64,000 nucleotides of DNA from Thermoplasmata archaeon (GCA_020054475.1 JAHWGJ010000002.1:38100-102099); one strand, 5' to 3'; positions 21,398-38,869 are shown, counted from the stretch's first letter. The notes: a model not told the origin generated them from the sequence alone. Numbers and translations: made by a program.

Positions 21398-21691
21398 GTT
21401 AAATTCTCCGAGGTATAATATATTATAATAATTAATAAATTTTTTTAATAAATTAAGATTGATTATTTAATTTATTATAATTTTAAATAAATTATGAAAT
21501 TAATTTACTTTTTAAAAAAAAATTCATTTTTATAATATTGAATATCATTATATGGTTTATATGCTTTGAAAAATCAATACCATTTGTTTTGCTATATCAA
21601 AAATTACCTTAATTAATATATATAGCTAATTTTATTCAGTTTTTCATTATCCCCCGCCTTAGCTCAGTCTGGCTGGAGCGGCCGGCTGTAG

Positions 21692-21706
21692 ACTTTAATG
21701 GCCGTG
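21692..21706 (+). other. tRNA-Tyr intron at the canonical 37/38 position
   Basis: The extra 15 nt ACTTTAATGGCCGTG lie immediately 3' of anticodon-loop position 37. The boundary is ambiguous by 1 nt. Confidence 0.8.
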
Positions 21707-21722
21707 ACCGGCAGGTCCCCGG

Positions 21723-21742
21723 TTCAAATCCGGGAGGCGGGA
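21723..21742 (+). repeat. attL: 3' 20 nt of tRNA-Tyr, direct repeat of 38850-38869
   Basis: TTCAAATCCGGGAGGCGGGA is identical at both sites, and the flanking bases differ on both sides. Confidence 0.8.
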
Positions 21743-21784
21743 CTAAACCATAAGTATATATTATCACCCTTTTATTAGATATTG

Positions 21785-22990
21785 ATGAAAACAATATATA
21801 ACTACGAGCATAACCTGGAAAAAGCATTAAAAAACCTTGATTCAAAGAGATTATCTAAAAAAAACAAGAATCAAATAAAAGAGTTCATCTATTTTTTATC
21901 AGTTAACAAAGTAGGTAAATGCAGACAGTTGAAATATGTCTTCGCTTTGCAGAACATAGCAGAATGGCTTAAAATTGATTTTGAGAAAGCAACAAAGAAA
22001 GATATAGAATATATAATAAATAAAATGGAGAATATTAAGCAGTCAAATGGACAGCCTTTTAGTGAATGGTCTAAACATGACCACCGGGTAATAATCAAGA
22101 AATTCTATACATGGCTTAGAAACAAGGAAAATGATGATATAGACGAATGGGAGACACCTAAAGAAGTCAAATGGGTTAAAGCAAAAAAACCACGTAACTG
22201 TAACAAGCTCCCTTCAGATTTGTTAACCCCTCAGGATATAACTTTTCTTTCTGATAACTGTAAAAACCTTAGAGAAAAAGCTTTGATTCTTACATTATAC
22301 GAGAGTGGAGCGAGAATCGGAGAATTATTATCTTTAAAGATTAAAGATGTTGAGTTTGATGATTACGGAGCTATGCTTAATCTCTTTGGAAAGACAGGAT
22401 ACCGTAAGATCCGCATAGTCGGAAGTTCACCAGCTCTTAGTCAATGGCTGCAGAATGAACATCCTAAACGTGATGATAAAAACGCTTATCTTTTTTGTAA
22501 TATCAACCAGGGTAATGAGGGAACTTTACTTTCTTATGCCTCTGCTAAAAAGATTTTAAACAACCTTAAGAAACGCACTGATTTTAAGAAACCGCTTAAC
22601 CCTCATCATTTCCGGCACAGCAGAGCCTCAGAGCTTGCAGAGCATCTAACCGATAGCCAGAGATGTCATTACTTGGGTTGGCAACAGGGTTCTCAAATGG
22701 CTCGTATATATACACATATAGAAGATACTAATAGAATAATACTTGAATTGAATGGCCTTGTTAAAAAAGATAAAGATAAAACAGGTAAATTCTCAGAAGT
22801 GATTTGCCCACGTTGCAATATTAAAAATCCTTATGGTAGTAAGTTTTGTGGTCAATGTAGTATGGGATTAGATATTCATAGTATCGATGAATTTGAAAAA
22901 ACACGCAATCAAGCGTTGAAAACAATTGACAACAGCCAAAATATTGAAGCTATTGTTGAAATGGTAATGAAGAAATTAGAAAATAGATAA
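21785..22990 (+). CDS. tyrosine recombinase / phage-type integrase with C-terminal zinc ribbon
   Basis: About 401 aa. Catalytic blocks ESGARIGELLSLKIKD (Arg), HHFRHSRAS (His-x-x-Arg) and GSQMARIYTHI (Tyr). C-terminal CPRCN..CGQCS zinc ribbon. Confidence 0.9.
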   Translation: MKTIYNYEHNLEKALKNLDSKRLSKKNKNQIKEFIYFLSVNKVGKCRQLKYVFALQNIAEWLKIDFEKATKKDIEYIINKMENIKQSNGQPFSEWSKHDHRVIIKKFYTWLRNKENDDIDEWETPKEVKWVKAKKPRNCNKLPSDLLTPQDITFLSDNCKNLREKALILTLYESGARIGELLSLKIKDVEFDDYGAMLNLFGKTGYRKIRIVGSSPALSQWLQNEHPKRDDKNAYLFCNINQGNEGTLLSYASAKKILNNLKKRTDFKKPLNPHHFRHSRASELAEHLTDSQRCHYLGWQQGSQMARIYTHIEDTNRIILELNGLVKKDKDKTGKFSEVICPRCNIKNPYGSKFCGQCSMGLDIHSIDEFEKTRNQALKTIDNSQNIEAIVEMVMKKLENR

Positions 22991-23036
22991 CAATCATTGT
23001 TTTGATAACGTATTTTTAATTTCAAAATCTTTCGGA

Positions 23037-23576
23037 TTGCCATATCCTACTAACTTTAGATTTATAGATAAAAATCATATTCCAATCAACTTTACCTATG
23101 GAGCTCAAAGAAAATCAAAAAAAGCATTTTCTATAAAAATTTTTGATCATTGCACAGAAATATACCAACCAATTATTTTAGAATATATCAAAAATAAATT
23201 CAAAGATAGCAATATCGAAAAATATATCAATTCATTTTATCAAGAAAATACGTTTACTAATTCCAAAGTATTTATGAAGAAAGATGGTATAATTCAACAG
23301 TACTCCAAAAATGAGAGCTATACCTGGATTCCAAATACATTGATTGGTATTAAAAAAGTTAATGATATACCAAGAGCCATTTTTAAGTTGCAGAATCACA
23401 TAATTCAAAATCACATAGAACACAAAACATATTTTAAAAATGGTGAAAAAGATAACTATGTTGATTATTATACTTCTTTGATTAAAAGCAATAAACTTTT
23501 GATGAAAAATAAGGTCATTGTACAGGATCCAAAGAATCCAAATAGATATTGTTCAAAAGCATTGTTAGATTCATAA
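23037..23576 (+). CDS. hypothetical protein (island cargo)
   Basis: 179-aa ORF with a TTG start and no motif I recognise. Confidence 0.35.
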   Translation: MPYPTNFRFIDKNHIPINFTYGAQRKSKKAFSIKIFDHCTEIYQPIILEYIKNKFKDSNIEKYINSFYQENTFTNSKVFMKKDGIIQQYSKNESYTWIPNTLIGIKKVNDIPRAIFKLQNHIIQNHIEHKTYFKNGEKDNYVDYYTSLIKSNKLLMKNKVIVQDPKNPNRYCSKALLDS

Positions 23577-24032
23577 ATCCATGATTGTTTTTGTTATGCC
23601 AGTTGAAGAGATTGAGAATAAGATGTATTTACTATGACTCCACATTACTTCGGAAGGTAGCTAAAATACGTTTCAAATTACACAATTTTGGGAAGAGGAA
23701 GATGATTTTGATAAACAAATGAAAGGATAAAGGAAGCGGTACCAAACTAGATACAGAAATTTCATCCAGTCTCCTGATTAGTTTTTGGGATTTTTAGAAT
23801 CTCCAATATATTACATTGCAAATTCCTATGTTCAAAAAACATTAACTATAGTACTACCGAGAAATACCCTAAAATCGCTATACCAGAAATCATTTGTTTA
23901 TTAAACTATACTTTTTTATCAATTCCGGCAGACAGCTTTAAAATAAAAATTAATTTTCAGGGTATTTTTAATCAACGAGACTGTCAGTCAAGGGGTTGAA
24001 AAACAGAAAAAAGAATAGAGAAAAAATGGTGA

Positions 24033-25643
24033 TCATAGATATTTTGAGAGAATTGGTTCAAGAATTGGAAAACGAAGTATTAATTGATTAATTAGTATCT
24101 GTAAAGTATTATATGAGTGAGGCATACTGATTACAAGTGGATCTGACCATTCACTCTCACCCCCATGAATGTCCTTAGTTTTTGCTTTTATTTCATAATT
24201 CCCTCTACGAGTCCAAGTGTGAGATTCACTGCACTCTTCTCCAGAATCATAAGGTCCAATCCATTCCCTTTCAGTTCCATCATCCCAATCAAACTTATAG
24301 TAAATCTGATCTCCATCAGAATCATTTCCTATGCAAGTGTAACCATACTCTTCGCCTATCTTACCTTGTGAAGAACCAGATGGAGCTGATGGTTTATCTG
24401 GTCTTGAATTTTCAAAAGCAGCAAATTTTACTAACCATACATCTCTATTACCTGAACCATATGATTCGGTAAATCCAGCAATGATATATCCTCCATCAGA
24501 GGTTTGATGTACTTCAAATCCTTCATCTATATCAGTTCCTCCGAACATTACGCTCCATTCCGTGTTACCATAAATATCAGTCTTAATTAAAACAGCATCA
24601 TTTGAAATAAACCCAGTAACGATGAATCCTCCATCTTGAGTCTGTTCCACAGAGGTTCCAGAGTCAAAAGAATCTTGTTCTCCAAAATACTTACTCCATT
24701 CTTCATTTCCATTACTATCAATCTTTATTAAAGAAAGATCCTCCTCCTCATCAGAAGAATAAATTTGTGACTGCCCCGTGAGAATATAACCACCATCAAT
24801 CGTCTGCTGAATCCAAAGACAGCTATCTAGATATGATCCACCAATAAACGGTTTATTCCATTGTGTCTCACCATTACTATCAGTTTTAATAACTAAAACA
24901 TTACTAGATGTCCAACTATTATCTAAATAATTCCGCCCCGTTACAATATATCCTCCATCATCAGTCTGTTGTACTGACATTAAATATTCACCACCAATTG
25001 AATCACCAAAAGTTTTATTCCAATCCTCATTACCATTACTATCTGTTTTAATCAACCAGCCGTCACTACCACCTGAACCATAAGAACGAGTTGATCCCGC
25101 AATAATATAACCACTATCAGATGTCTGATGAACTGAAACACCTTGATCATCATCTGACCCTCCAAAAGTTTTATTCCAAACCTCATTACCATTACTATTC
25201 GTTTTACTCAGCCATATATCCATATTCCCAGCGCCAAAAGACGTTGTCAATCCAGTAAGTATATATCCTTCATCTAATGTCAGACTCACATCACCAAACC
25301 TGTCAATCCCAGATCCTCCAAAAGTTATATTCCAAACATCATTACCATTACTATCTGTTTTAATCAACCAGCCATCACCTCCAGTATCCCACCAAATAGC
25401 ATCTCTCCCTCCTGCAATGATAAATCCATTATCAAATGTTGGTTTAACACTTAGTCCAACATCAAACATCGATCCACCAAATGTTTTGTTCCACTCCTCT
25501 TCTGGACCATTAACCGAATTAATATGATACCCAAAAATATTTTTAACAGGTAAGGAATCTTTTTCTATTATTGATAAAGATGCAGTATCAACAATACAAA
25601 AACAAAGTATAAATACACTAAATATTGGTATTATTTTTTTCAT
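24033..25643 (-). CDS. secreted beta-propeller-repeat protein with the shared C-terminal PKD-like/SMP tail module
   Basis: 536 aa. Signal peptide, then about 7 repeats of the type GG..D.G.SV.QT.DGGYI..G.T.SYG.G..D.WL.KTDSNGN..WNKTFGG. Ends with ..YYKFDWDDG..GPYDSGEE..GNYEIKAKTKD..SEWSDPLVISMPHS..LILRFPILEPILSKYL. Its ATG overlaps the upstream stop (ATGA). Confidence 0.85.
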   Translation of the reverse strand: MKKIIPIFSVFILCFCIVDTASLSIIEKDSLPVKNIFGYHINSVNGPEEEWNKTFGGSMFDVGLSVKPTFDNGFIIAGGRDAIWWDTGGDGWLIKTDSNGNDVWNITFGGSGIDRFGDVSLTLDEGYILTGLTTSFGAGNMDIWLSKTNSNGNEVWNKTFGGSDDDQGVSVHQTSDSGYIIAGSTRSYGSGGSDGWLIKTDSNGNEDWNKTFGDSIGGEYLMSVQQTDDGGYIVTGRNYLDNSWTSSNVLVIKTDSNGETQWNKPFIGGSYLDSCLWIQQTIDGGYILTGQSQIYSSDEEEDLSLIKIDSNGNEEWSKYFGEQDSFDSGTSVEQTQDGGFIVTGFISNDAVLIKTDIYGNTEWSVMFGGTDIDEGFEVHQTSDGGYIIAGFTESYGSGNRDVWLVKFAAFENSRPDKPSAPSGSSQGKIGEEYGYTCIGNDSDGDQIYYKFDWDDGTEREWIGPYDSGEECSESHTWTRRGNYEIKAKTKDIHGGESEWSDPLVISMPHSYNTLQILINQLILRFPILEPILSKYL

Positions 25644-27832
25644 ATTTTAAACTCCAAAATTATCTTGAAAAAATTAAAAAATTGAGATTTCCCCCAAAAC
25701 CTATACAGTAATTTTAATAAACCTATATTTTCAAATTCTATACTTTTTGGCATACTAACTGTTAGAGGATCTGACCAGTCGCTTTGAACTCCGTTTTCAT
25801 CTTTTGCTTTAGCTTTAACTTGGTATCGTCCTTTATTGGCCCATGAATGATTCGCCTCTACCTGCTCTCCTGAATTATAAGGACCAATCCAGCCAGATAA
25901 ATTATCATCGCCCCAATTAAAAAGATAATATAGATCGTCTCCATCGGGATCAGTCGTTGATGATGAATATGAGTATAATATATCTGGTTCTACTGAAGAT
26001 TGACCTGATGGTTTTGCTGGTTTTTCTGGAACTTGAGAATGTTCTCCAATTACAAGTGTTGGATCTCCAAAGGATTGCCATGATTCAAGCGTAGCATAAT
26101 CACGAACCTCCATACTAGGATAAATATAATCCTCTATGGCCATAACCCACATTTCTCCAAATGTTATTGAATCTCCTTTATTTACACACTCTTTGTATGC
26201 TTCAAATATATTCATTGTAATTTCTTCAATAAATCCACCTGTTATACCTCTTCCACCCCCATTAGCATAACCAAAGGTAGTAACACCAAAAGAACCTATA
26301 CCACCACCATTAGGATTGGAAAGAAACGACCAACCAAAACAATTATCGATTACATTGTATTTACAAGTAGAACAAGCACCAAGAACAATAATGGGAAGTT
26401 TTTCATTATTTGTTAATTTTGCAGAATGTATATTAGAATATCCCCCAGGTATTGGAAGCCATTTGGATTCATCACCATGAGGATGTGTCGCCCATAAATT
26501 AGGATCACCATGCCCAGAAAAGTCAACAAATCCACATCCTTCATTGATGATATTAGATATTTCGTTGTTAAAAAAGACATTATCATCTAACATTCCCTTA
26601 GAAGCCCATATCCGCTTTGGGATAAAACCATCAAGGATACCAATTACAATATCATTTACATATTCTCCTTCATCAACCATCCAAGTATCATCAGTAAAGG
26701 TATCCCCTCCAATTACAACCAAATCAGTAAACCAATCTTTTGTAGATGCTCTATCTGTTTCATAATTAGTAATTTTCTCCACACATGTTTTTACTTCGGT
26801 TTCATTAATACAAGCAATTCGACCTATAGAAATATCAGGGTAGAGATCAACATCATCTGTTAAATGAGAATCGCCCCAATCATACTCAGCAAATACATTG
26901 TTTTGGTTTGTATCCCAACTTGCAAAATAACCATCAGCATCATATATATCAGCATAATAGAGATCGCTAATGAAGGATTCATCAACATCAAAATATTCTA
27001 AATATACATGTGTTTCTCTCGCTGGAAATGAATGATACCCACCGACTAATAATACTGAAGAAATACCCCATTGCTCTATAGCATTTTTAATAAAATATTT
27101 AACTTTCTCTGGATTATCTCGACCTTCAACGAGAAAGTACTGACTATCATATATTTCATTAAGAGCAACAAGTTTGGTTTCAATCCCTCTGTTATTCTTA
27201 TGATTGACCAAATCCTCTAATTCATCCGCATATTCAGAAGGGGAGAGAATAATATAATCATACACATCGGAGGATGATAAAGGTTGTTCAGATTCTTTGT
27301 ATTCTATTTCAATATCGATTTGTTCAACCCAATCTATAATGTTTTCGGAAGGATGATATTGAACTGGAAAAACCTGTACTTTAACAAACACGTTTATATC
27401 ATCTTTATTCAAACCAGTTCCAATATTATACTTATACCATTCAGAAGGGGCTATTGGAGATGAATCTGTTTTTATATTTTTTTGAATATTAGTATGCTCT
27501 AAAAGAATGGGCTCTGGTGCCACCATTATTTCTTTTGTTAATGTTTCTCTATGAATATTTCCAGGTTGGCATTTTATACTTTTAATTTGTGTTCCAAAAG
27601 GAAAGGTAAAGGTTTCAATTCTTGTTGGAACAATATAATGATTATATTTCATCAGTTTTGAATTTGCACCTTCAAGGTCTAATGAGATATATTCTTCATT
27701 CTCCTGTATCGAAAGTTGTGAAAAGGATAAAGTAATTTTTTCTTGTTTGAGTTCATCATCTGTTAAAGCAATAGCTCCAAATCCACTAAAAATAATAAAT
27801 CCAATTACTAATACTATGAATATTTTCTTCAT
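25640..27832 (-). CDS. secreted peptidase C25 (gingipain-like) with the shared PKD-like/SMP tail module
   Basis: C25 propeptide-like N-terminus, LLVGG, DFSGHGDPNLW (His) and IIVLGACSTCKY (Cys). C-terminus ..YYLFNWGDD..GPYNSGEQ..GRYQVKAKAKD..SDWSDPLTVSMPKS..LLYRFWGK. Start set at the internal ATG 27832 (MKKIFIVLV signal), which forms an ATGA overlap with the upstream stop. Confidence 0.85.
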   Translation of the reverse strand: MKKIFIVLVIGFIIFSGFGAIALTDDELKQEKITLSFSQLSIQENEEYISLDLEGANSKLMKYNHYIVPTRIETFTFPFGTQIKSIKCQPGNIHRETLTKEIMVAPEPILLEHTNIQKNIKTDSSPIAPSEWYKYNIGTGLNKDDINVFVKVQVFPVQYHPSENIIDWVEQIDIEIEYKESEQPLSSSDVYDYIILSPSEYADELEDLVNHKNNRGIETKLVALNEIYDSQYFLVEGRDNPEKVKYFIKNAIEQWGISSVLLVGGYHSFPARETHVYLEYFDVDESFISDLYYADIYDADGYFASWDTNQNNVFAEYDWGDSHLTDDVDLYPDISIGRIACINETEVKTCVEKITNYETDRASTKDWFTDLVVIGGDTFTDDTWMVDEGEYVNDIVIGILDGFIPKRIWASKGMLDDNVFFNNEISNIINEGCGFVDFSGHGDPNLWATHPHGDESKWLPIPGGYSNIHSAKLTNNEKLPIIVLGACSTCKYNVIDNCFGWSFLSNPNGGGIGSFGVTTFGYANGGGRGITGGFIEEITMNIFEAYKECVNKGDSITFGEMWVMAIEDYIYPSMEVRDYATLESWQSFGDPTLVIGEHSQVPEKPAKPSGQSSVEPDILYSYSSSTTDPDGDDLYYLFNWGDDNLSGWIGPYNSGEQVEANHSWANKGRYQVKAKAKDENGVQSDWSDPLTVSMPKSIEFENIGLLKLLYRFWGKSQFFNFFKIILEFKI

Positions 27833-29124
27833 ATTTTTATACCCCCAATAGCTTTTTTGCATAAGATATTGAATAATATTAAAGCTGCTCTATTACTAAA
27901 AAGTGTCCCAGTATTTGGTAAATTATTTACAAAAAATATTACACCCGTATCATTATAAGAGCAAGGGTAATACATGAAAGTCCATACACCAAAATTTCCA
28001 CCATTATGACCTGCAAGTTTTTCCTTACAAAATGAATAATCCATTTCTACCCATGCTAACCCGTAATCAGTTGTTTGAGAATCATCAAAATCAGGTGGTT
28101 GTATTCTATGCATCTCTATAATAGTATCTTTTTCAAGAATACTAATACCTTTGTAAACGCCATCGTTCATATGGGCGATTAAAAAATGTGAAAGGTCTAT
28201 AACAGTTGTATATAAACCACCAACAGGATAATGAAGCATTCGATGATATTTACTATCCGCAAATCCTTGTAGTGTATCAATTGTTAAATATTCCCCGTTT
28301 GAATAATAATATGGAATTGCAACATCATCAATATTTAAAGATGAAAGATTAAAACTAGTTTCATACATCATTAAAGGTAAAAAGATATGTTCATCGCAAT
28401 AATCAATGAAAGATTCTCCAGAAATTAATTCAACGAGATACGCAACTATATCAAAGTTTATATTCGCATAAATATGATACTCACCAGGTGGATCCTCAGG
28501 GTTCCAATATCCATAAAATGGAGGATCATACCATTTCCCATCTGGAGTTAAATAATCGATTATCCATGGGAAAGGATAGAAGGAAAATGGTGGATCACCC
28601 GAGAAATTAAACCAATACCATGGATGATAATCATCTATCAAAATTTCTGGAGCTAAACCAGAAGAATGCGAAAGCAACATCCGAAAAGTAATAGGAACAT
28701 CAGGGAAATTAGGATTTCTCAGAGTAAAGGATAGGTAATCATTGACATCATCATCAAGATCGAAAAATCCTTGTTCATAGAGTTGCATCAATGCTGTACC
28801 AGTAATTGTTTTAGATATTGAACCGATGTTGTAAATAGTGTATCTTGTGGAAGGTTTTTCATTTTCAAGATCATAAGAACCATAACCCTTTGACCATACT
28901 ACCTCATCATTATCAATAATACATGCTGAAAGGGATGGAAAATGAGCGAGTTTCATAAGGATAGTAACAACCTTATCAAAAAATATGTCATTTGAACCAG
29001 TTCTTTGTTCTACAAAATCATTTTCATAATAAGCGTATACCATTGCAGGTATTACAGAGAATACCATCAAAACTGCAATAAGCGAAACAACAGCTTTTTT
29101 ATATATTTCCATTTTTATTTTCAT
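27829..29124 (-). CDS. secreted beta-lactamase-fold serine hydrolase (class C / D-aminopeptidase-like)
   Basis: S-x-x-K motif (GSISKTITG), Y-x-N (YANIN) and an HNGG box. Signal/TM segment VVSLIAVLMVFSVIPAMVYA. Start set at ATG 29124, preceded by a GGAGGC RBS. Confidence 0.85.
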   Translation of the reverse strand: MKIKMEIYKKAVVSLIAVLMVFSVIPAMVYAYYENDFVEQRTGSNDIFFDKVVTILMKLAHFPSLSACIIDNDEVVWSKGYGSYDLENEKPSTRYTIYNIGSISKTITGTALMQLYEQGFFDLDDDVNDYLSFTLRNPNFPDVPITFRMLLSHSSGLAPEILIDDYHPWYWFNFSGDPPFSFYPFPWIIDYLTPDGKWYDPPFYGYWNPEDPPGEYHIYANINFDIVAYLVELISGESFIDYCDEHIFLPLMMYETSFNLSSLNIDDVAIPYYYSNGEYLTIDTLQGFADSKYHRMLHYPVGGLYTTVIDLSHFLIAHMNDGVYKGISILEKDTIIEMHRIQPPDFDDSQTTDYGLAWVEMDYSFCKEKLAGHNGGNFGVWTFMYYPCSYNDTGVIFFVNNLPNTGTLFSNRAALILFNILCKKAIGGIKI

Positions 29125-29399
29125 ATTTTTGCCTCCGCCATATAATCTTATATCAAAGAAATTGGATATATTATTATCAAGAAAAATCAACGTAATATAA
29201 GATAAGAATCATACTTGTAAAAATTAATAAAATTATTAACAAAATAAACTTTATTTTATTATTTTTTATTTTTTCCAATATTTTCTGATAATCATACATC
29301 TTTTTTTCTCCATTTTTTTATTATTTCTATTTATTCAAATCCAACAAATTTGATTTGACTCTACCAATTTCAATAGATTACAAATGATTTGTTTTAAAT

Positions 29400-29504
29400 T
29401 CAACTCATTCCCCCTGTAGCAAAAAATATTATTCCTCCAATTATGAAAGATACAACCATAATTATGAATAAACGTAATATTATCTTCTCAATATTAAATT
29501 TCAT
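29400..29504 (-). CDS. possible 34-aa single-pass membrane peptide
   Basis: [34 protein letters not shown]. Its ATG overlaps the end of the DUF1700-like gene. Below the ORF-track size cut-off. Confidence 0.3.
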   Translation of the reverse strand: MKFNIEKIILRLFIIMVVSFIIGGIIFFATGGMS

Positions 29505-30644: not shown

Positions 30645-30845
30645 ATGCCAATGAAATGTCAAATATGTAGAAAATTTTTTGGAATTGTATATAAAAAACA
30701 TAAATTAAAAGATGGTAAAATTGTTTGTATTGACTGTTTAGAGAGAATACATGAAAAAAACCACCATTCTCAAGAAATGACAAAAAAACATATATGTAAA
30801 TATTGTAATAATAAAATTCATAGAGTAAGTAAAGGATGGTCATAG
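30645..30845 (+). CDS. small zinc-ribbon protein
   Basis: 66 aa with three CxxC pairs (CQIC, CIDC, CKYC), lying downstream of repeat copy A. The antisense ORF 30643-30879 is low-complexity junk. Confidence 0.4.
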   Translation: MPMKCQICRKFFGIVYKKHKLKDGKIVCIDCLERIHEKNHHSQEMTKKHICKYCNNKIHRVSKGWS

Positions 30846-30899
30846 TTGGATAGTTGAAAAATAATCCCGCGAATCTCACTTATAGAATTTCTAATATAA

Positions 30900-30923
30900 A
30901 CATCATATTCAGCAAGTAATAAT
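30900..30923 (+). repeat. island intergenic repeat, copy H (module 2 fragment)
   Basis: ACATCATATTCAGCAAGTAATAAT matches the core of copies A, B, E, F and G. Confidence 0.6.
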
Positions 30924-30926
30924 TCA

Positions 30927-31895
30927 TTAACCTTCTGGAAAAAATAGATACTTATGTACTTCTTTAAAATTAAAATATTTAAAATTTCTCATACTCCCAG
31001 GAAATTTATTATTAATTTCACCCATAATTTCATTTAGATGAGATAAATCTTTAACGAAAAATTCTAATTCTAAATGAGAAGAACCTGTTGTAAAATCAAT
31101 CGAAAAAAGATGAATGTTATTTTTAATATAATTTATAATTTTGTCACGTTGACTGTAGTCTTTCAAATAAATATCAAGTTTGAAATATTGATAACCGAGT
31201 TTAGTATGATCAATATTAGCTCTAAAACTTTTTATTATCTCAGTTTTTTTAAGTTTATTAATTCTATATTTTATTGCTTCAGGACTCATCCCAATTTTTC
31301 TAGATATATTTACTAAAGGAGTTCTCGCATTAGAAGAAATTATTTTTAATATTTCAATATCAATATCATCAACTTCAATAGGTTTGTTTCCACCCATAAC
31401 ATCAATATATTTTGAGTGTTCAATTTTATTTATATCTCCGAGTATAAATGATAATTTATGAGTTATATATTTTATATATAAGGAGAGAGTTTGATCTTGA
31501 AAATAATCACCATATTTTTTTAGAGTTTCTTGCCAATATTTATAAAAACCATTCTGATCTTTTATCCAAAATACAACCTCAAAATCATATCCACCTTGAA
31601 GTGAATAAACTACAACAGCTGATTTTGTTTTCACAAAATGATCAATTATCTCTTTTTTTATATTCTCTGTTAAGTATTGAAATATGAAATATATTCGTAT
31701 AACAGTATAACCTAAACGTATTCCATCTATAAATGTGTAATAATTTTGTATTATTCTATTTTTTTCTAGTTTTTTTATTCTATAATCAACTGAATTTTTT
31801 GATAGATTTACTTTTTTCCCTAATTGATTTAGTGATTGTCTAGCATTTAAACTTAATTGAAATAATATTTTTCTATCTTTTAAATCAATGTTCAT
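30927..31895 (-). CDS. tandem (duplicated) Lrp/AsnC-family transcriptional regulator
   Basis: 322 aa with two HTH_AsnC units (DLKDRKILFQLSLNARQSLNQLGKKVNLS.NSV.YRIKKL and DIDIEILKIISSNARTPLVNISRKIGMSPEAIKYRINKL), each followed by a RAM-like domain. Confidence 0.8.
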   Translation of the reverse strand: MNIDLKDRKILFQLSLNARQSLNQLGKKVNLSKNSVDYRIKKLEKNRIIQNYYTFIDGIRLGYTVIRIYFIFQYLTENIKKEIIDHFVKTKSAVVVYSLQGGYDFEVVFWIKDQNGFYKYWQETLKKYGDYFQDQTLSLYIKYITHKLSFILGDINKIEHSKYIDVMGGNKPIEVDDIDIEILKIISSNARTPLVNISRKIGMSPEAIKYRINKLKKTEIIKSFRANIDHTKLGYQYFKLDIYLKDYSQRDKIINYIKNNIHLFSIDFTTGSSHLELEFFVKDLSHLNEIMGEINNKFPGSMRNFKYFNFKEVHKYLFFPEG

Positions 31896-31995
31896 TTATA
31901 TAACAATACGTAATGTTATATATATAATAATTACGTTTTGTCAGAAAATATAGTAATTATAGTTTATATATGCTAATTTTGATAATAAAATAGGA

Positions 31996-32217
31996 ATGAA
32001 AAATATGGATAGAATAAATCTTACAATTGCTTTAATGTGGATATTTCTTATAATTACATTAATATTAAGTATTTTCTATAATTTAAATCTCTTCTTTTTT
32101 ATCATACTATTTTCTATAATTATTCTTTTAACAATTTTTCTTATTTTTGAATATCAACCTGACTCTAACCAGAATGAATCTGTAAAAAATAATGAAAGAA
32201 TCGAGGTGAAAAAATGA
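31996..32217 (+). CDS. small two-TM membrane protein
   Basis: 73 aa, two hydrophobic helices, and an ATGA overlap with the next gene. Confidence 0.45.
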   Translation: MKNMDRINLTIALMWIFLIITLILSIFYNLNLFFFIILFSIIILLTIFLIFEYQPDSNQNESVKNNERIEVKK

Positions 32218-33419
32218 AAAAAACAATATATTGTATTTTTGGAGTGATATTTCTTTTAATTTCGACAAGTTTTGGACTTGCATGTACTGGTTTTACAGCA
32301 TCGGATGATAATAAAGTTCTTGTTGGAATAAACGAGGACAACATTCCTTCAAGGAGATGGGTTGAAATATTTCCCCCTGATGAAGGGAAATTTGGAAAAA
32401 TCTTTTTTTGTTATCAAATAAATGGTCGTCAACAAGGCATGAATGATCAGGGATTATTTTGGGATGGCTTTTACGCTCCATATTTAGAGATTACAAAAGG
32501 TGAAGGTAAGATTTCAATTCCAGATAGACAATATTTTTTTAATAATACCTTGGCTGAGAATTGTTCAACCGTCTATGATGTTGTCGATCTTTTAAACCGC
32601 CATGACATACGTGATTTTAGATATGAGGAATTGCAGATATTGTTTGTTGATAGATTTGGAAACTCCATGATTTTCGAAGGTGATGAGTATGTGTTTAAAG
32701 AGGGAGATTACCAAGCGGTCACTAATTTTTATCAAACCCATCCTGAACTTGGCGGATATGGTTTTGATCGATATGAAACTGCTATTACCATGCTTGAAAA
32801 TATGAATGAATTATCTATGAATTATTTCCGTGACATTTGCGATGCGACACATCAGGAGTGGAATTATCCATATCCAAAGACAATTTATTCCCTTGTTTGT
32901 GATCTTACCCATAATAAAATAAATTATTACTATGAATATGATTATAGTAAAGTATGGGGGATTAATTTAACTGAATTATTCGAATATGGAAGAAATACAT
33001 ATGATGTTTTAAAAATCCTTAACAATCATAATCCAAATAAACCCTTTCGCCCTGATGGTCCAAAGAACGGTGAAACAAGTAAAGAATATAATTTTACAGC
33101 ATCAACATCTGATAACGATGGAAATCAGATTTATTATAAATGGGATTTCGGCGATGGAAATATAAGTGAATGGCTGGGTCCATATGATTCAAATGTAAAA
33201 TGTTATATTAATCATACATGGTACAATGAGGGACAATATAGTGTTAGAGTAATGGCAAGAGATACGAATTGTGGGAAAAGTGATTGGTCAAACCCTTTGG
33301 TAATTAGTATGCCAAAAAATTTACATCACATTAATACATTAATTGATATGATTAATTATTTTTTCAATAATTTTTATAAGTATTTCAAAAGTATTTTTTC
33401 GGTTGAGGTATACACATGA
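32214..33419 (+). CDS. secreted Cys-Ntn hydrolase (C45/C59 linear-amide hydrolase-like) with the shared PKD-like/SMP tail module
   Basis: The signal peptide ends ..SFGLA|CTGFTASDDNKVLVGINEDN, placing the nucleophile Cys right after the predicted cleavage site. C-terminus ..YYKWDFGDG..GPYDSN..GQYSVRVMARD..SDWSNPLVISMPKN.. Confidence 0.75.
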   Translation: MKKTIYCIFGVIFLLISTSFGLACTGFTASDDNKVLVGINEDNIPSRRWVEIFPPDEGKFGKIFFCYQINGRQQGMNDQGLFWDGFYAPYLEITKGEGKISIPDRQYFFNNTLAENCSTVYDVVDLLNRHDIRDFRYEELQILFVDRFGNSMIFEGDEYVFKEGDYQAVTNFYQTHPELGGYGFDRYETAITMLENMNELSMNYFRDICDATHQEWNYPYPKTIYSLVCDLTHNKINYYYEYDYSKVWGINLTELFEYGRNTYDVLKILNNHNPNKPFRPDGPKNGETSKEYNFTASTSDNDGNQIYYKWDFGDGNISEWLGPYDSNVKCYINHTWYNEGQYSVRVMARDTNCGKSDWSNPLVISMPKNLHHINTLIDMINYFFNNFYKYFKSIFSVEVYT

Positions 33420-35011
33420 AAGGATATAAAATTAATATTTTAAAAGGGGAAAAAACAATTGAAAAAATTACATGTTTTATATTATTAATTATATTACTTT
33501 CATCTGTATTTCCATCTGTAATATCCTCAATTAAATTCCATGAATCTGATTTAGGTATTGAATGGAGTAAAACATATGGGAGCTCAGAATGGGATTTCTT
33601 ATTTAATGTAGATGAAACAACAGATGGAGGTTATTATACTTCAGGTACAACGGAAATTTCAAATATGTATTATGGTTGGATAATGAAATTAGATTCAAAA
33701 GGACATATTGAATGGGAAATAATAGAAGAAGATACTCGATGTTCAAATCTTAATTACCTTTTAGTATATAATGCAATTCAGACAAAAGATGAGGGATTTA
33801 TCATTTGTGGTAGTACTCAAGATGATGAAAATAATTTGGTTGGATTTGTTATTAAATATGATTTAGATGGAAATAAGCAATGGAGTAGAATATATGGTGA
33901 CAAGGATTCTAATCAGATTACAAATGTTCTTGAATTAGATCAAGGATATATGGCTATTGGTATTGAATCAATAAATGATGATTATTATAGTCCACTAATA
34001 AAGATTGATAATGATGGTTTAGTTGAATGGAAGAAAAATTTTAATTATGGCGAAAATCCCGATATGTTTTGGGGTATTTGCAGTACAAACGATAATGGAT
34101 TTATATTATCTGGAACAACTGGTTGGGCTCAACCAAATGCTGATATTTGGCTTGTAAAAACAGATGCTGAAGGAAATTTGATTTGGAATAAGACGTATGG
34201 CGGAGACGCTGCTGAGGAATTTAGACCAAATAAATGTAGTATAGCATCTGATGGTGGTTTCATTATTGGTTGTGAATCCAACTCTTTTGGATCTGGAGAT
34301 CTAGATGGTTGGATTTTTAAAATTGATTCCGATGGAAATATGCTTTGGGATAAAACATTTGGAGGGGAAATGCAGGATCGGATTTGGGGGATGGATAATA
34401 CAGTTGATGATGGATTTATTTTTTGTCTTAATAAAAATTATGACAGGAGACCAAATACTGAGATTGATTTGATAAAATTAAATAGCAATGGAGAGGTAGA
34501 TTGGATTGTAAATTATGCAACCCCTAAAGTATGTATGGGTTATCAGATAAGTCAAACAAGTGATAATGGTTTTATTTTAGCATTAAGAATTAATGGAGGA
34601 TATGGATCATCTAATGCGGATGGAGCCTTAGTAAAAATATCAGAAAAAATTAATAATAAACCCGATAGACCTATTCAACCTCAAGGAGAATCTAATGGAA
34701 AAACGGGTAAGGAATATACATATTCTACAGTTACAATTGACCCAGAAGGTGAACAACTGTATTATTTTTGGGACTGGGGTAACGGCAATAACAGTGGTTG
34801 GATTGGCCCATATGATTCTGGTGAAGAATGTTTGGTTTCTTATAACTGGAAATCTGATGGTAATTATTCAATTAGAGTAAAATCAGAGGATAATCTTGGA
34901 TATGAGAGCGAATGGTCAGATCCTCTCGTTATAAGTATGCCAAAAAATAAGGATCGGTCTCCATTATTTTATTGGTTTTTATCAAAATTAGTATCTTTTT
35001 TCATTTTTTAG
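33416..35011 (+). CDS. secreted beta-propeller-repeat protein with the shared PKD-like/SMP tail module
   Basis: 531 aa. Repeats of the type DGG(F/Y)I..G.T.S.G.G..D.W..K.D..GN..W.KT(F/Y)GG. C-terminus ..YYFWDWGNG..GPYDSGEE..GNYSIRVKSED..SEWSDPLVISMPKNK..FYWFLSKLVSFFIF. ATGA overlap with the upstream gene. Confidence 0.85.
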   Translation: MKGYKINILKGEKTIEKITCFILLIILLSSVFPSVISSIKFHESDLGIEWSKTYGSSEWDFLFNVDETTDGGYYTSGTTEISNMYYGWIMKLDSKGHIEWEIIEEDTRCSNLNYLLVYNAIQTKDEGFIICGSTQDDENNLVGFVIKYDLDGNKQWSRIYGDKDSNQITNVLELDQGYMAIGIESINDDYYSPLIKIDNDGLVEWKKNFNYGENPDMFWGICSTNDNGFILSGTTGWAQPNADIWLVKTDAEGNLIWNKTYGGDAAEEFRPNKCSIASDGGFIIGCESNSFGSGDLDGWIFKIDSDGNMLWDKTFGGEMQDRIWGMDNTVDDGFIFCLNKNYDRRPNTEIDLIKLNSNGEVDWIVNYATPKVCMGYQISQTSDNGFILALRINGGYGSSNADGALVKISEKINNKPDRPIQPQGESNGKTGKEYTYSTVTIDPEGEQLYYFWDWGNGNNSGWIGPYDSGEECLVSYNWKSDGNYSIRVKSEDNLGYESEWSDPLVISMPKNKDRSPLFYWFLSKLVSFFIF

Positions 35012-35036
35012 AATAGATTTAAGGAGTTTGGAATGA

Positions 35037-35204
35037 GTGATTAAAGAAATCCCTTCAATAAAAAAAATGTTATTTGGGATTATGATTATGTTAATAGGAG
35101 GTTTTATTATGCTAAATGAATCTCTAAACCTTCGTGGAATTGAATTTTTTTTTATACTTGGCGGGTTTTTAATGGGTATTTTAGGGTTATTTTTTAATGA
35201 TTAA
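35037..35204 (+). CDS. possible 55-aa two-TM membrane peptide
   Basis: GTG start 11 nt after AAGGAG. Hydrophobic sequence ..MLFGIMIMLIGGFIML..FFFILGGFLMGILGLFF. Below the ORF-track cut-off. Confidence 0.3.
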   Translation: MIKEIPSIKKMLFGIMIMLIGGFIMLNESLNLRGIEFFFILGGFLMGILGLFFND

Positions 35205-35251
35205 ATATGAGTGAATAATATGAATAAAATATTATTTAATGAGGTGAAAAA

Positions 35252-36439
35252 ATGAGAAAAATTGGACGAATAATATCAGTTATAATATTTTTTATTATTT
35301 TAATACAATTAGCAGGCGTTATTCTTTATAGTGAAAAAAATGATGTAATCGCTGATGTCTTGATTTATACTGGCCCTGGTGCATGGGGAACAGGTTATCG
35401 TGCTTTTGAAAAATTTCTTGATTATAAAAATCTTACATGGTTTGAATGCAATCATAACTTTATAAATAATAATGATTTAGAGGGAAAATTTAAGGTAATT
35501 CATTTTCCTGGTGGATCTCCAGGCGAATACAGTAATTCAATAAATCTTGCGGGTCATAAAAATATTAGAGATTTTGTTTCTTCAGGTGGGGGATATGTTG
35601 GAATTTGTGCGGGGGGTTATTTTGCAGCAGATATAAACATCTGGGAAGGAAACACATATGATATTCCATTGAATTTATTTTCAGGAACAGCATATGGGGC
35701 AATTGACGAAATAATACCTTGGCCAGGATATAAAATGACTAATATCACAATAAATAAATCTAATCCAATTAACCTTTATGAACCAATTTCACAGACAATA
35801 TTATATTATGGAGGCGCAGCATTTTACCCAAATGAAGGACAACAAATTAATATTATAGGAACTTACGACTCATTAAACAACGATCCTGCTATTATAAATT
35901 TAAATTATGGAGATGGGCGAGTATTATTATTTGGACCGCATCCTGAAATCGAAGAAGATAGCGATCGTGATGGAGAAACCACTTTTCATTTTTTAGAAGA
36001 TAATGGTACAGATTGGAATCTGTTATGGACTTCAATGGATTGGTTAATGAAACGAGAAATTTCAGAACCGCCTATGTCTGTACAACCTGATAAACCTGAT
36101 ATAAAAGGTATGTTGAATGGAAAAAATGGAATTGAATATAACTATACAATTTATACTAATGATCCTGATTTGGATGAAGTATATTATTATATTGACTGGG
36201 ATGATAATTCAATAAGTGATTGGTTTGGTCCATATAAATCAGGAGAAATAATTCAAATTACTCACTCTTGGAATAAAATCGGTAAATATAGTGTACGAGC
36301 CAAAGCTAGAGATATGAACAATTTAGAAAGTGAATGGTCAGATCCTCTCGTTATAAGTATGCCAAAAAATAAAATCAATATGAATTTAATAATTTGGAGG
36401 TTTCCATTATATAAATATCTTTTATCAATTATTGCGTAG
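35252..36439 (+). CDS. secreted class-I glutamine-amidotransferase-like (BPL_N-type) protein with the shared PKD-like/SMP tail module
   Basis: N-terminal TM/signal segment, then VIHFPGGSPGEY and a GGGYVGICAGGYFA nucleophile-elbow pattern. C-terminus ..YYYIDWDDN..GPYKSGE..GKYSVRAKARD..SEWSDPLVISMPKNK..IIWRFPLYKYLL. Confidence 0.7.
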   Translation: MRKIGRIISVIIFFIILIQLAGVILYSEKNDVIADVLIYTGPGAWGTGYRAFEKFLDYKNLTWFECNHNFINNNDLEGKFKVIHFPGGSPGEYSNSINLAGHKNIRDFVSSGGGYVGICAGGYFAADINIWEGNTYDIPLNLFSGTAYGAIDEIIPWPGYKMTNITINKSNPINLYEPISQTILYYGGAAFYPNEGQQINIIGTYDSLNNDPAIINLNYGDGRVLLFGPHPEIEEDSDRDGETTFHFLEDNGTDWNLLWTSMDWLMKREISEPPMSVQPDKPDIKGMLNGKNGIEYNYTIYTNDPDLDEVYYYIDWDDNSISDWFGPYKSGEIIQITHSWNKIGKYSVRAKARDMNNLESEWSDPLVISMPKNKINMNLIIWRFPLYKYLLSIIA

Positions 36440-36441
36440 AA

Positions 36442-36499
36442 AAGAAAGGAAAACAGAGCTATAATGCTGCAATACTGCTATTATCTGTTTTCCTTTCTT
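36442..36499 (+). terminator. 16-bp perfect hairpin immediately after the 35252-36439 gene
   Basis: AAGAAAGGAAAACAGA (36442-36457) pairs perfectly with TCTGTTTTCCTTTCTT (36484-36499), leaving a 26-nt loop. The hairpin begins 3 nt after the TAG stop. Confidence 0.5.
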
Positions 36500-36653
36500 C
36501 CCTCCCAAATAAACATCCGTTAACGGTATAATTAATAGTACTAAATATTCTATTATGTAGATAAATGAAGGGAGAATTATTGTAATTCCGAATTATAATA
36601 ATTCTTTTTGATATTACTAGATGGAATAAGGAATATAAGGGGAAAGAAAATAA

Positions 36654-37034
36654 ATGAGAAAACATCTAATTGTGTCTGGAATTGTATTTGTTTTACTGAT
36701 GGTAAATTTAAGTGGATGTAATGATATACTAGAAGCACCTAAAATTGAATTTATTCAAGAAGATGGGTGGCTTATAGTCAGCTTCGTTGAAAAATCAATT
36801 TTATCTTGGGATAATATCAATATTTCACTCTCGTCAGGTAAATATTCGGATATTGGTTTTCATTATAGTCCTGAAATATCTTCTCTTATACCATATGGTA
36901 ATGGAAACTCCTGCCCTAGTGATTGGGGTGTTATCGTTGAAGATAACGGTATCTTTTTTCAACTTATTGATGCAATTGTAACGTTATACTGGATACCTAC
37001 TAATGTATCCTTTGGAGAATGGGATTTTACATAA
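36654..37034 (+). CDS. small secreted/lipoprotein-like protein
   Basis: 126 aa with signal peptide and lipobox-like LSGC (VFVLLMVNLSGCND). Confidence 0.5.
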   Translation: MRKHLIVSGIVFVLLMVNLSGCNDILEAPKIEFIQEDGWLIVSFVEKSILSWDNINISLSSGKYSDIGFHYSPEISSLIPYGNGNSCPSDWGVIVEDNGIFFQLIDAIVTLYWIPTNVSFGEWDFT

Positions 37035-37078
37035 AATTAATCATTCTTTTTCTCTTAAGCACTAATAAAACTTTAATA

Positions 37079-37160
37079 TTTTATCTCTCAGGAGGCTTCA
37101 AAAATATGATGTAATGCTACATCATAATTAGCAATAATTAATGTTACAAGTGTTACAATT
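37079..37160 (+). repeat. island intergenic repeat, copy B (full length, contains 9-bp palindrome)
   Basis: TTTTATCTCTCAGGAGGCTTCAAAAATATGATGTAATGCTACATCATAATTAGCAATAATTAATGTTACAAGTGTTACAATT. The palindrome TATGATGTA-ATGC-TACATCATA lies at 37105-37126. Confidence 0.8.
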
Positions 37161-37217
37161 ATTATCCATATGATTAAATAGAAATCTTCAAAAATCAAAC
37201 TTAGTTCCAAATGTTAC

Positions 37218-38243
37218 ATGTCTAGATTATTTATATCATATTCAAGATTATTTCGCTTATCAGGACTAATCGGTTTCTCAATAAATCCTGTATTTGGAGC
37301 ATTAAGTCTATCTCAAATTGGAGTACAAGTCAATCTCTTAACATTGTTTTTATTATTATTGATTGGAGTCTTTAAAACAATACATGGAAGTGTCATGAAT
37401 GATTATTTTGATATTGAAGTTGATAAACTTTCCCATAATCCAAATCTGAGGCCTCTCGTTATAGGTGAAATATCAAAAAATACAGCAATTATAATTATAT
37501 TACTGACTGTCGTATTCATATTTGCAATATTTTTTGGTTATTTTTACAGAAACCAACCTTCATTTTACTATGCTTTTATTTGTATAATCCTTGCTGCAAT
37601 TGCAGGGTTTATTTATAATAGATATGGCAAAAGATTTGCCGGCTCCGATTTTCTCGTTGGATTTTCTGAAGGAATTTTTGTTCTTATTGGAGCTTATCTA
37701 GTTTCCCCGGATGGTCAACTTAGTATTTTTACTTGGGTTATTTTCTTATTGGTCTTTAATCAGTATTTGTTTATGAATATGATTATTGGTGGGATGAAAG
37801 ATGCTGACCATGATTTTCTACTTAAAGTAAAAAATGTTGCAATTAAAACAGGTGTAATATTAAAAAAGGATAAAAAAATCCATCTCCCTATTAGTTTTAT
37901 TATCCTAGGATTGATCATCAGGTTTTTTTCAGCTTTTCTCATATTTGTACCCTTCATATTCTATAAAGTGTATTTTGAACTATGGGAAATTATTGTAATA
38001 ATACTGGTTGTTGGTATGGTTCTTTTATTAACATTTAAATTACTTAGTCTTAAGAGTTTTGTTCAACGTAAAAAAGTTCTTGGTCTTTTCGCAATTCAGG
38101 GAGTTCTTCGTTACAGTTTTGTTCCATTTTTATTATTGCCTGTGATTGGACTTGCTTCAACTGTTGGGTTAATTCTATTACCCCTTCTTTGGTATGTTTT
38201 GATAATGTTTAAATCAAGACAGGATATAGCTCCAAATTTGTAA
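37218..38243 (+). CDS. UbiA-family membrane prenyltransferase (copy 1)
   Basis: 341 aa with about 8-9 TM helices. First Asp-rich motif NDYFDIEVD (N-x3-D-x3-D), second KDADHD. Confidence 0.8.
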   Translation: MSRLFISYSRLFRLSGLIGFSINPVFGALSLSQIGVQVNLLTLFLLLLIGVFKTIHGSVMNDYFDIEVDKLSHNPNLRPLVIGEISKNTAIIIILLTVVFIFAIFFGYFYRNQPSFYYAFICIILAAIAGFIYNRYGKRFAGSDFLVGFSEGIFVLIGAYLVSPDGQLSIFTWVIFLLVFNQYLFMNMIIGGMKDADHDFLLKVKNVAIKTGVILKKDKKIHLPISFIILGLIIRFFSAFLIFVPFIFYKVYFELWEIIVIILVVGMVLLLTFKLLSLKSFVQRKKVLGLFAIQGVLRYSFVPFLLLPVIGLASTVGLILLPLLWYVLIMFKSRQDIAPNL

Positions 38244-38265
38244 TAAAGGACAAGCAAATAGCATT

Positions 38266-38301
38266 TTGTCTCTCAGGAGGCTTCAAAACAAAGTTTTTTG
38301 T
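38266..38301 (+). repeat. island intergenic repeat, copy C (module 1), forming a 36-bp perfect inverted repeat with 40193-40228
   Basis: TTGTCTCTCAGGAGGCTTCAAAACAAAGTTTTTTGT is the exact reverse complement of 40193-40228. Confidence 0.85.
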
Positions 38302-38569
38302 GTTGAATGGATTTTATTTAATTAACAATAATAAGTTTTTTAATATATTCTGATAAAGGAGTAATGGAAGAATTTTAGTAAAAGCGAGGGAAAAAAGGAG
38401 AACAGTAGATAAGTAAAAAACCATTGTTACTGCCCCCTTTCTTCTATAATTATCGGCATCAAAATATAATATAAAAGGATTTCTATCAAAATCCTGTTTT
38501 CTCCTTATTAGTTTCAAGATATCTATTTTGTAAATATAATTATATATATCATTCAAATATGGAAATTTA

Positions 38570-38833
38570 ATGGAAAGTAAAGATTTTGAAAATATTAATG
38601 ATAAGTTAGATAGAATTGAAAGAAAAATTAACAAGGTTCAAAATGAATTATCTTTTTCATCAATCTTTACTCTTGCTGTTTTTGAATCTACATTGGCAGC
38701 TGCTCTTTTAAGTTTTGGATTTTCAGTTAATGATGAGATTAGTATATGAGTTGGATATTTCTTATTTGCACTTGCAGTATTTTGCTGGTTTTATCTATTT
38801 TATGATGGACATAAAAAACGAAAAAATAGATAA
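38570..38833 (+). pseudogene. small membrane-protein ORF interrupted by an in-frame TGA
   Basis: MESKDFENINDKLDRIERKINKVQNELSFSSIFTLAVFESTLAAALLSFGFSVNDEISI-TGA(38747)-VGYFLFALAVFCWFYLFYDGHKKRKNR. It reads as one coiled-coil plus two-TM protein and ends 17 nt before attR. Confidence 0.3.
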
Positions 38834-38849
38834 TATTATGAACTTTCTT

Positions 38850-38869
38850 TTCAAATCCGGGAGGCGGGA
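38850..38869 (+). repeat. attR: copy of the tRNA-Tyr 3' end
   Basis: TTCAAATCCGGGAGGCGGGA is identical to 21723-21742. Confidence 0.8.

Follow-up and report, generated by a model that had tools for sequence, protein, structure and literature searches.

A probable cryptic integrated element with secreted hydrolase genes at the tRNA-Tyr gene of a Thermoplasmata archaeon

A perfect 20-bp repeat and an integrase gene between tRNA-Tyr and trm5

We analyzed a 64,000-nt stretch of DNA from a Thermoplasmata archaeon (GCA_020054475.1, JAHWGJ010000002.1:38100-102099; hereafter the window, with positions counted from its first nucleotide), in which a 17.1-kb block of genes, here called the island, lies between a tRNA-Tyr gene and the methyltransferase gene trm5. 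The tRNA-Tyr gene (anticodon GTA; 21653-21742, + strand) is recognized by Rfam (51.6 bits, E 3.6e-08) and by ARAGORN with intron search, which reports tRNA-Tyr(gta), i(40,15), with a 15-nt intron. Because of this intron, the default mode of ARAGORN overlooks the gene. We take this gene to be the integration target, and it is intact after insertion: its score equals that of the tRNA-Tyr genes at the four unoccupied sites described below (51.7 bits).

The last 20 nt of the tRNA gene, TTCAAATCCGGGAGGCGGGA (attL core; 21723-21742, + strand), span the T-loop, the 3′ strand of the T-stem, the 3′ strand of the acceptor stem, and the discriminator base. They recur exactly at 38850-38869 (+ strand) as a partial tRNA copy, the attR core. 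These are the only two exact copies in the window, there is no further site in the window at up to 3 mismatches, and no match occurs in 100 dinucleotide-preserving shuffles. The 17,127 bp that separate tRNA-Tyr from trm5 are bounded by the repeat. On the left, the tRNA gene is preceded by a DUF211 gene (21107-21397, − strand; PF02680, 3.9e-34), which is likewise found upstream of tRNA-Tyr in three loci of relatives (L003, L005, and L103). On the right, the attR core is followed by trm5 (38935-40008, + strand; TRM5 methyltransferase domain, Pfam 1.5e-50) and by a tRNA-Thr gene (39999-40072, + strand; ARAGORN and Rfam). The 65-nt gap between attR and trm5 is in line with the distance between tRNA-Tyr and trm5 at unoccupied sites (about 40-66 bp). 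The tRNA-Thr gene begins within the 3′ end of the trm5 open reading frame (ORF), an arrangement that is conserved: the two overlap by 10 nt here (39999-40008) and by 15 nt in L006 (11030-11044).

Between the tRNA and the integrase gene lies a 42-nt element-side arm (P′; 21743-21784, + strand), which is also the probable promoter region of the integrase and begins with CTAAACCA. The arm is identical at 42 of 42 positions in L002 and at 39 of 42 in L103. Its start also directly follows the tRNA in L003, and the unoccupied sites differ at that position.

The integrase gene (21785-22990, + strand) begins with an ATG 42 nt past the end of the tRNA and is an intact ORF of 401 codons for a tyrosine integrase (PF00589, 8.8e-23) with a C-terminal four-cysteine zinc ribbon (weak zinc-ribbon match). 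In an alignment of 36 homologues, R177, K203, H274, R277, Y309, and C341/C344/C355/C358 are invariant, and W299 is nearly so. Box II reads PHHFRHSR, which is an HxxR motif (H274xxR277), and the ribbon has the form CPxC...CxxC. An earlier note on this DNA had described the perfect repeat ending the tRNA-Tyr gene, the trm5 and tRNA-Thr genes directly past its distal copy, and a full-length integrase with R / HxxR / Y blocks and a zinc ribbon; all three descriptions hold, with the positions of the repeat exact.

The integrase and its family

To judge by substitution rates, the integrase gene is kept by purifying selection. Compared with the 97%-identical copy in L002 (positions 218-1426), the ratio of nonsynonymous to synonymous rates (dN/dS) is 0.09 overall and 0.02 over codons 1-330, where 11 synonymous changes and 1 non-synonymous change are found. 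From 0.06 in codons 1-330, the synonymous rate rises to 1.38 in codons 331-401. This jump after about codon 330 points to a recombination breakpoint within the zinc-ribbon tail, and thus to a mosaic integrase. Past the integrase stop codon, the window and L002 sequences are unrelated.

The integrase belongs to a large family (1133 matches at E<=1e-10), the named members of which come mostly from Thermoplasmatota metagenome-assembled genomes (MAGs). Among the 52 metagenome loci with at least 300 nt upstream of the integrase, 23 have a tRNA gene that ends less than 300 nt upstream, on the same strand in 22 of the 23; we estimate that an association by chance would be expected in under 1%. Nine tRNA types are covered by the tRNA-associated loci. 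A search for attR in 16 family members, with 10 kb fetched for each, gave one clear case (L066, a 16-bp repeat 5.7 kb away); most family elements run past the 10 kb searched. The first 10 kb of cargo in 11 other members is heterogeneous and includes primase-helicases, PIN proteins, a DNA methyltransferase, ParA/NUBPL proteins, ABC transporters, arsenic-related permeases, and chemotaxis genes, a range that fits what would be a generalist island-forming integrase.

Two other identities of the integrase were considered and rejected. It is not the chromosome-dimer resolvase XerA: the window's protein scores 108.6 bits with the XerA model of NCBIfam (NF040815), below the cut-off of 220, and it also differs by an additional region at its N-terminus, by the zinc ribbon at its C-terminus, and by its position next to a tRNA. 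The best match among solved structures, 4a8e_A (probable tyrosine recombinase XerC-like; 8e-14), covers the catalytic domain only. An SSV-type (suicidal, split-gene) integrase is rejected since the gene is uninterrupted, with the att core outside it, 42 nt before the start codon. Exact-protein look-ups of trm5, of UbiA (described below), and of a TTG-start version of the integrase returned no match; the ATG-start integrase matched a record on the 111.8-kb contig from which the window comes.

A separate locus from a Thermoplasmatales archaeon (L004; CP070798.1, 10001-17978) has two tyrosine-integrase genes 5.5 kb apart, one of them 63% identical to that of the window. They flank a tandem-Lrp regulator (38% identical to that of the island), a response regulator, and a GDT1 transporter. 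No tRNA is reported there by ARAGORN, even with intron search.

Occupancy of the tRNA-Tyr/trm5 site in relatives

Using the Trm5 protein as a query against one genome per species, we found the site empty at four loci (L005, L006, L007, and L008) in three Thermoplasmata MAGs. In each, an intron-containing tRNA-Tyr gene with the identical 20-mer is followed, after about 40-66 bp, by trm5 and tRNA-Thr. All four belong to species other than that of the window (Trm5 38-53% identical), and L006 and L007 also have the GT2 glycosyltransferase and the large surface protein of the window's left flank. The empty site that the earlier note had suggested looking for in related genomes is therefore present there, and from these loci we deduce that the ancestral order was DUF211, tRNA-Tyr, trm5, and tRNA-Thr.

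Other relatives have the site occupied. The closest host by flank proteins is L003 (ENA scaffold ZHAO22-1_..._scaffold_851; GT2 78% and DUF211 70% identical), which has the same left neighborhood as the window, namely GT2, the large surface protein, DUF211, and tRNA-Tyr with the same 20-mer. In L003, however, the tRNA is followed by a 68%-identical integrase, a D5_N/DUF5906 primase-helicase, and genes unrelated to those of the window, and the distal end of the element lies beyond the contig. Because of the primase-helicase and the other genes that the window lacks, the L003 element looks like an integrative plasmid or a virus-like element. A 1.4-kb contig, L002, holds the tRNA, the arm, and the 97%-identical integrase. 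In L103 (GCA_042767745.1), a member of the same genus whose aligned flanks are 87.5-91% identical to those of the window, the tRNA and the arm are followed by only the first 62 nt of the integrase gene, after which homology ends and different genes begin. With empty, primase-helicase-bearing, remnant, and hydrolase-island states all found, the tRNA-Tyr/trm5 locus emerges as a variable hot spot.

One further contig, L001 (Logan), ends inside the tRNA and was considered as a sign of island polymorphism. We rejected this interpretation: the tRNA body there is common to co-occurring relatives, and a break is what k=31 unitigs would be expected to give.

Beside the island, a 1309-aa surface protein (16829-20758, − strand) is only 56% identical to its counterpart in L103 (9875-13795), compared with 91% for the neighboring GT2 and 99% for DUF211. 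Judged by this comparison, it is a fast-evolving protein.

A proposed route of integration

We propose that the 17.1-kb block is a cryptic integrated element (genomic island) that was inserted by its own classical, lambda-mode, unsplit tyrosine integrase, and we give this interpretation a probability of roughly 0.8. The evidence comes from the repeats, from the intact integrase gene under selection, from relatives in which the site is unoccupied or differently occupied, from the decayed copy in L103, and from the tRNA association across the integrase family, and it bears out the claim of the earlier note that a tyrosine-integrase element sits in the 3′ end of tRNA-Tyr. The element is cleanly bounded and apparently functional.

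Under this proposal, a circular form carrying attP would recombine with attB, the last 20 nt of tRNA-Tyr. In our reconstruction, attP (...GAACTTTCTT-TTCAAATCCGGGAGGCGGGA-CTAAACCATAAG...; in the junction form, ATGAACTTTCTT and CTAAACCATAAGTATA on the two sides of the core TTCAAATCCGGGAGGCGGGA) would lie directly upstream of the integrase gene, and attB would have CCCCGGTTCAAATCCGGGAGGCGGGA joined to TATCTTTATAAAGAAAG. The crossover would restore a complete tRNA-Tyr at attL, followed by the arm beginning with CTAAACCA and by the integrase gene, and would leave a 20-nt partial tRNA copy at attR, beside trm5. We infer the circular intermediate, excision in the present day, and transfer of the cargo as one unit. 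The reconstructed attP also contains an 11-bp inverted repeat (TTATCTATTTT / AAAATAGATAA), the nearer arm of which ends ~14 nt upstream of the core. We considered these as arm-type repeats and set them aside, for in DNA so AT-rich they are not separable from chance.

Cargo genes of the island

Past the integrase, the island encodes a 179-aa ORF (23037-23576, + strand) that has no match in Pfam, PHROGs, or NCBIfam and no homologue in any of the integrase loci fetched. Then come six genes on the − strand. The first encodes a secreted SBBP-like beta-propeller repeat protein with a C-terminal PKD-like domain and tail (24033-25643; weak PKD matches, SBBP lipoprotein model 2.6e-09), and its gene contains 156-162-nt tandem coding repeats (family D1). 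Next is a secreted C25 (gingipain-type) cysteine peptidase with a PKD-like C-terminal domain (25640-27862; Peptidase_C25, 1.3e-53), which has 1324 homologues, including a "gingipain" of Thermoplasmatales archaeon SCGC AB-540-F20 at 50% identity. Its gene is overlapped by that of a secreted beta-lactamase-fold serine hydrolase of the S12 type (27829-29190; PF00144, 3.3e-52). The remaining − strand genes encode a HAAS-domain membrane protein (29494-30087; 1.3e-12), a PadR regulator (30071-30391; 7.5e-19), and a 322-aa tandem AsnC/Lrp-type regulator with two HTH_AsnC-type stretches (30927-31895; 8.2e-23).

The distal part of the island is encoded on the + strand. A co-directional run of four genes (31996-36439) begins with a 73-aa membrane ORF and continues with a C45/AAT-like hydrolase (32214-33419), an SBBP-like propeller protein (33416-35011), and a BPL_N (glutamine-amidotransferase-like) protein (35252-36439), each with a PKD domain and each identified by Pfam and NCBIfam. 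Two genes of this run have in common a 47-nt stretch at 96% identity (family D2). A probable lipoprotein of 126 aa (36654-37034) and a UbiA-family prenyltransferase (37218-38243; 1.7e-19) complete the island.

The annotations of hydrolases, propellers, PadR, tandem-Lrp, and UbiA proposed in the earlier note thus agree with Pfam and NCBIfam, and its view of the cargo as non-viral is borne out as well. We found no capsid, fusion, packaging, replication, or conjugation protein with Pfam (island ORFs) or with PHROGs and NCBIfam (ten ORFs each); specifically, Pfam and PHROGs revealed no replication initiator, primase-helicase, or conjugation ATPase in 21743-38849. With regard to virion genes, Pfam and the PHROGs scan of ten island ORFs gave only integrase, generic helix-turn-helix, and generic hydrolase matches.

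Genes of these kinds are also found outside the island. In L101 and L102, a cluster of a tandem-Lrp orthologue (41% identical), a C25 orthologue (58%), and a PKD gene, with a BPL_N gene not far away, is set among housekeeping genes (RPA, FTHFS, FTCD, and ABCE1), and no integrase occurs within 10 kb. An Lrp-like protein is encoded near a C25 gene in L112, and a beta-lactamase-fold gene adjoins a C25 gene in L113. The window itself, outside the island, has a second C25 peptidase (33% identical), a NosD/PKD protein, a C15 peptidase, and another propeller/PKD protein. C25 peptidases are also reported to be characteristic of, and expressed in, Thermoprofundales (PMC6461988). The cargo genes are typical of the host lineage rather than exotic. 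The earlier note had called the payload unusual; it is less so than stated there, given that the C25, tandem-Lrp, beta-lactamase-fold, and PKD genes are lineage-typical and occur both outside the island and in relatives, and that archaeal cryptic integrated elements with auxiliary metabolic genes are on record (PMC6563490). Recent duplication of the host's C25 or UbiA gene into the island was also considered and rejected: the two C25 proteins are only 33% identical, and the UbiA proteins inside and outside the island have no significant similarity.

Six secreted proteins have the same ~90-aa C-terminal module, which consists of a PKD-like domain followed by a short hydrophobic tail, often with RFPILE. 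The consensus is ...YxWDWGDG...GPYxSG...HxW...GxYxIxVKAKD...SEWSDPLxVSMP[KR], and the bearers are encoded at 24033-25643 (−), 25640-27862 (−), 32214-33419 (+), 33416-35011 (+), 35252-36439 (+), and 40465-41448 (−). The island's C25 peptidase resembles the type IX secretion sortase PorU (76 bits, under the cut-off). Possibly the module serves as a lineage-specific tag for sorting or anchoring that is processed by a C25-type enzyme.

Several smaller features accompany these genes. Between the genes for PadR and the tandem-Lrp regulator, and running opposite to both, is an unannotated 66-aa ORF with three CxxC pairs (zinc-ribbon-like; 30645-30845, + strand). The window also has four copies, at up to 1 mismatch (0 expected), of a 24-nt motif, TTTGTCTCTCAGGAGGCTTCAAAA, three in the island (30482-30505, 37080-37103, and 38265-38288, all +) and one just past tRNA-Thr (40206-40229, −). 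Copies 1 and 2 are part of an extended similarity of ~110 nt and lie about 115-160 nt upstream of the zinc-ribbon ORF and UbiA; downstream of copies 3 and 4, a hairpin and a U-run resemble a terminator. The motif is absent from all 111 loci searched. Another repeat, ~31-45 nt long and mostly intergenic (TAGCATTATTACTTGCTGATTATGATGT...; families D3/D4), is found in the right flank at 41525-41572, 42721-42751, 43778-43822, and 45501-45548, and also at 28911-28941. It matches three sites of L103 at 91-100% identity and may act as a promoter or leader, or represent a small family of repeats. Finally, adjoining a histone-deacetylase-family gene and the second C25 peptidase, a 955-aa protein (50476-53343, + strand) has only a weak match to family-B DNA polymerases (5.6e-14) and may be a divergent or inactivated PolB.

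Evidence against the proposal and alternative explanations

Several results weigh against integration of the 17.1-kb block as an element. A degenerate pattern for the attL, attR, attB, and attP junctions (TTCAAATCCGGGAGGCGGGAYWWMWYYATAAR) had no match in metagenome contigs; neither the circular attP junction, named in the earlier note as a thing to look for, nor an empty site from the same species or population turned up in these contig searches. In viral contigs, the attL/attP-type junction pattern likewise had no match. The attR junction is supported by one assembled contig only, and no excision-directionality factor was identified. The GC content of the island (30.0%) is indistinguishable from that of the flanks (30.3%), and in tetranucleotide composition the island is closer to the remainder of the window (distance 0.111) than is the median of arbitrary 17-kb chunks (0.124). 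The comparison of k-mer and GC composition of 21743-38849 with the flanks, which the earlier note had recommended, therefore does not set the island apart or signal a foreign origin; such host-like composition implies either an origin of the island in the same gene pool, or one much like it, or a long residence. Since orthologues of the cargo lie in relatives with no integrase nearby, the cargo may have been captured locally or accreted in place. The remnant in L103 suggests, in addition, that the site has perhaps been occupied since before the split of the two species.

The L103 remnant, with a divergence similar to that of the flanks, also speaks for a different history, in which an old insertion predating that split lost any replication or virion genes that it had, accumulated the hydrolase cargo in place by rearrangement, and became a fixed relic, so that the 17-kb block either has ceased to move as a unit or has never done so. 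The host-like composition, the cargo orthologues in integrase-free neighborhoods of relatives, and the failure to find a circular junction in contigs agree with such a history. We nevertheless consider it unlikely. The integrase is intact and under strong purifying selection, and both 20-bp cores are perfect even though the attR copy is free of tRNA constraint. The last point has a limit: a neutral 20-mer left unchanged is not improbable at roughly 5% lineage divergence. In L002, moreover, a near-identical integrase stands beside a more diverged 85-nt flank (83% versus 97-100%), which hints at recent movement. The sequence involved is very short, and we reject the incongruence of flank and element in L002 and L103 as proof of transfer, because informative sites are too few.

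A much smaller chance attaches to an assembly artefact, that is, to a metagenome contig that wrongly joins two regions at a short shared sequence. The window does come from a metagenome-derived contig (111.8 kb), and its attR junction is without independent support. However, the k-mers typical of assembly are longer than 20 bp, L002, L103, and L003 independently have the attL junction (tRNA, arm, and integrase), pieces of both island and flank occur at 100% identity in one independent run (SRR26538807), and composition is uniform over the junctions. Least credible of all is that a second tRNA-Tyr gene, a duplicate, decayed until only the distal 20-mer was left, a reading for which sequence identity alone speaks: alignment finds no similarity to the remaining 70 nt of tRNA-Tyr upstream of 38850, yet the 20 nt are perfect; Rfam detects no tRNA at the attR copy; relatives have a single tRNA-Tyr, adjoining trm5; and the integrase lies exactly at the other copy.

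Comparison with known integrated elements

Tyrosine integrases at tRNA 3′ ends, direct repeats, secreted-enzyme cargo, and a lack of self-transfer genes are familiar from bacterial tRNA-linked islands of the metabolic, fitness, or pathogenicity type. The archaeal island is like them in its tRNA-end integrase, its repeats, and its accessory secreted-enzyme cargo, and unlike them in its archaeal host, its intron-containing target tRNA, and its lack of the compositional skew that is common in bacterial islands.

Among archaeal elements, the island agrees in nearly every point with the published description of cryptic integrated elements. In Thaumarchaeota, the medians for these are 17 kb in size and 17 bp in att length. 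Their targets are tRNA genes in 57% of cases, some of them with introns, and the insertion is then nearly always at the 3′-distal end; auxiliary metabolic genes are part of their cargo (Krupovic et al. 2019, PMC6563490). The island resembles them in its integrase and att repeats, its size, its short att, and its auxiliary metabolic cargo, as well as in lacking the hallmark genes by which viruses, casposons, integrative-conjugative elements, and insertion sequences are recognized. It differs in its host, a member of the Thermoplasmatota, in its integrase, which is of another family and has a C-terminal zinc ribbon, and in its cargo, which is a set of secreted peptidases and hydrolases, whereas the Thaumarchaeota elements carry multicopper oxidases, AmoC, and UspA.

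In its mode of integration, the island corresponds to class II (classical, pNOB8-mode) integration, in which the integrase gene stays intact, att lies outside the gene, and the target is a tRNA 3′ end (PMC8371274). The signature given for pNOB8-type integrases by She et al., as relayed in PMC8371274, is R...YxxR...Y. The window's integrase instead has HxxR, as do SNJ2-type and bacterial enzymes. The description "unsplit, pNOB8-like" in the earlier note is thus accurate for the unsplit gene and the mode of integration; it does not extend to membership of the pNOB8 family, since the YxxR signature is missing. The SNJ2-type module combines an R...HxxR...Y tetrad with small coiled-coil and winged-helix genes in an operon. 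The window's integrase has the tetrad, no overlapping co-transcribed small ORFs are evident at it, and the neighboring 179-aa ORF has no recognizable domain.

The closest annotated integrases of mobile elements are those of Geoglobus acetivorans pleomorphic virus 1 (GacPV1) and ThalV2, at 33-34% identity over 93-94% of the protein, and the GacPV1 integrase also has a C-terminal CPRC...CGRC ribbon. As in the island, the integrase stands at one end of the 13-16-kb pleolipovirus proviruses of Archaeoglobi (PMC10919331). These proviruses, however, have genes for virion proteins like VP3/VP4 and, in the case of GacPV1, for a rolling-circle Rep as well; the island has no homologue of any of these. 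We rejected a decayed pleolipovirus, there being no tblastn similarity to the GacPV1 genome beyond the integrase.

Implications for sedimentary Thermoplasmata

As it stands, the island is a further example of a well-known mechanism and a fairly ordinary archaeal genomic island. What is without an earlier description, as far as our literature search turned up, is an integrated element of this kind in this uncultured, AT-rich Thermoplasmata lineage, and with this cargo. The analysis also delimits a large family of tRNA-targeting integrases with a C-terminal zinc ribbon.

Should the hydrolase cargo indeed move together with the integrase, the degradation of proteins outside the cell, a trait to which benthic Thermoplasmata are said to owe their ecological success, would in part be an accessory function open to exchange. 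We tentatively go one step further, to a view that we ourselves hold to be doubtful: the island could be one of a class of "cargo-only" islands that move extracellular protein-degradation operons among sedimentary Thermoplasmata, with the zinc-ribbon tyrosine integrase as their vehicle. Such operons would comprise gingipain-type C25 peptidases, S12-like hydrolases, and PKD-like-tagged proteins, and replication-competent relatives using the same att, such as the D5-primase element of L003, would perhaps help them to move. Were this view to be true, the peptide-scavenging capacity that ecologically defines these archaea would be, in part, a mobile trait.

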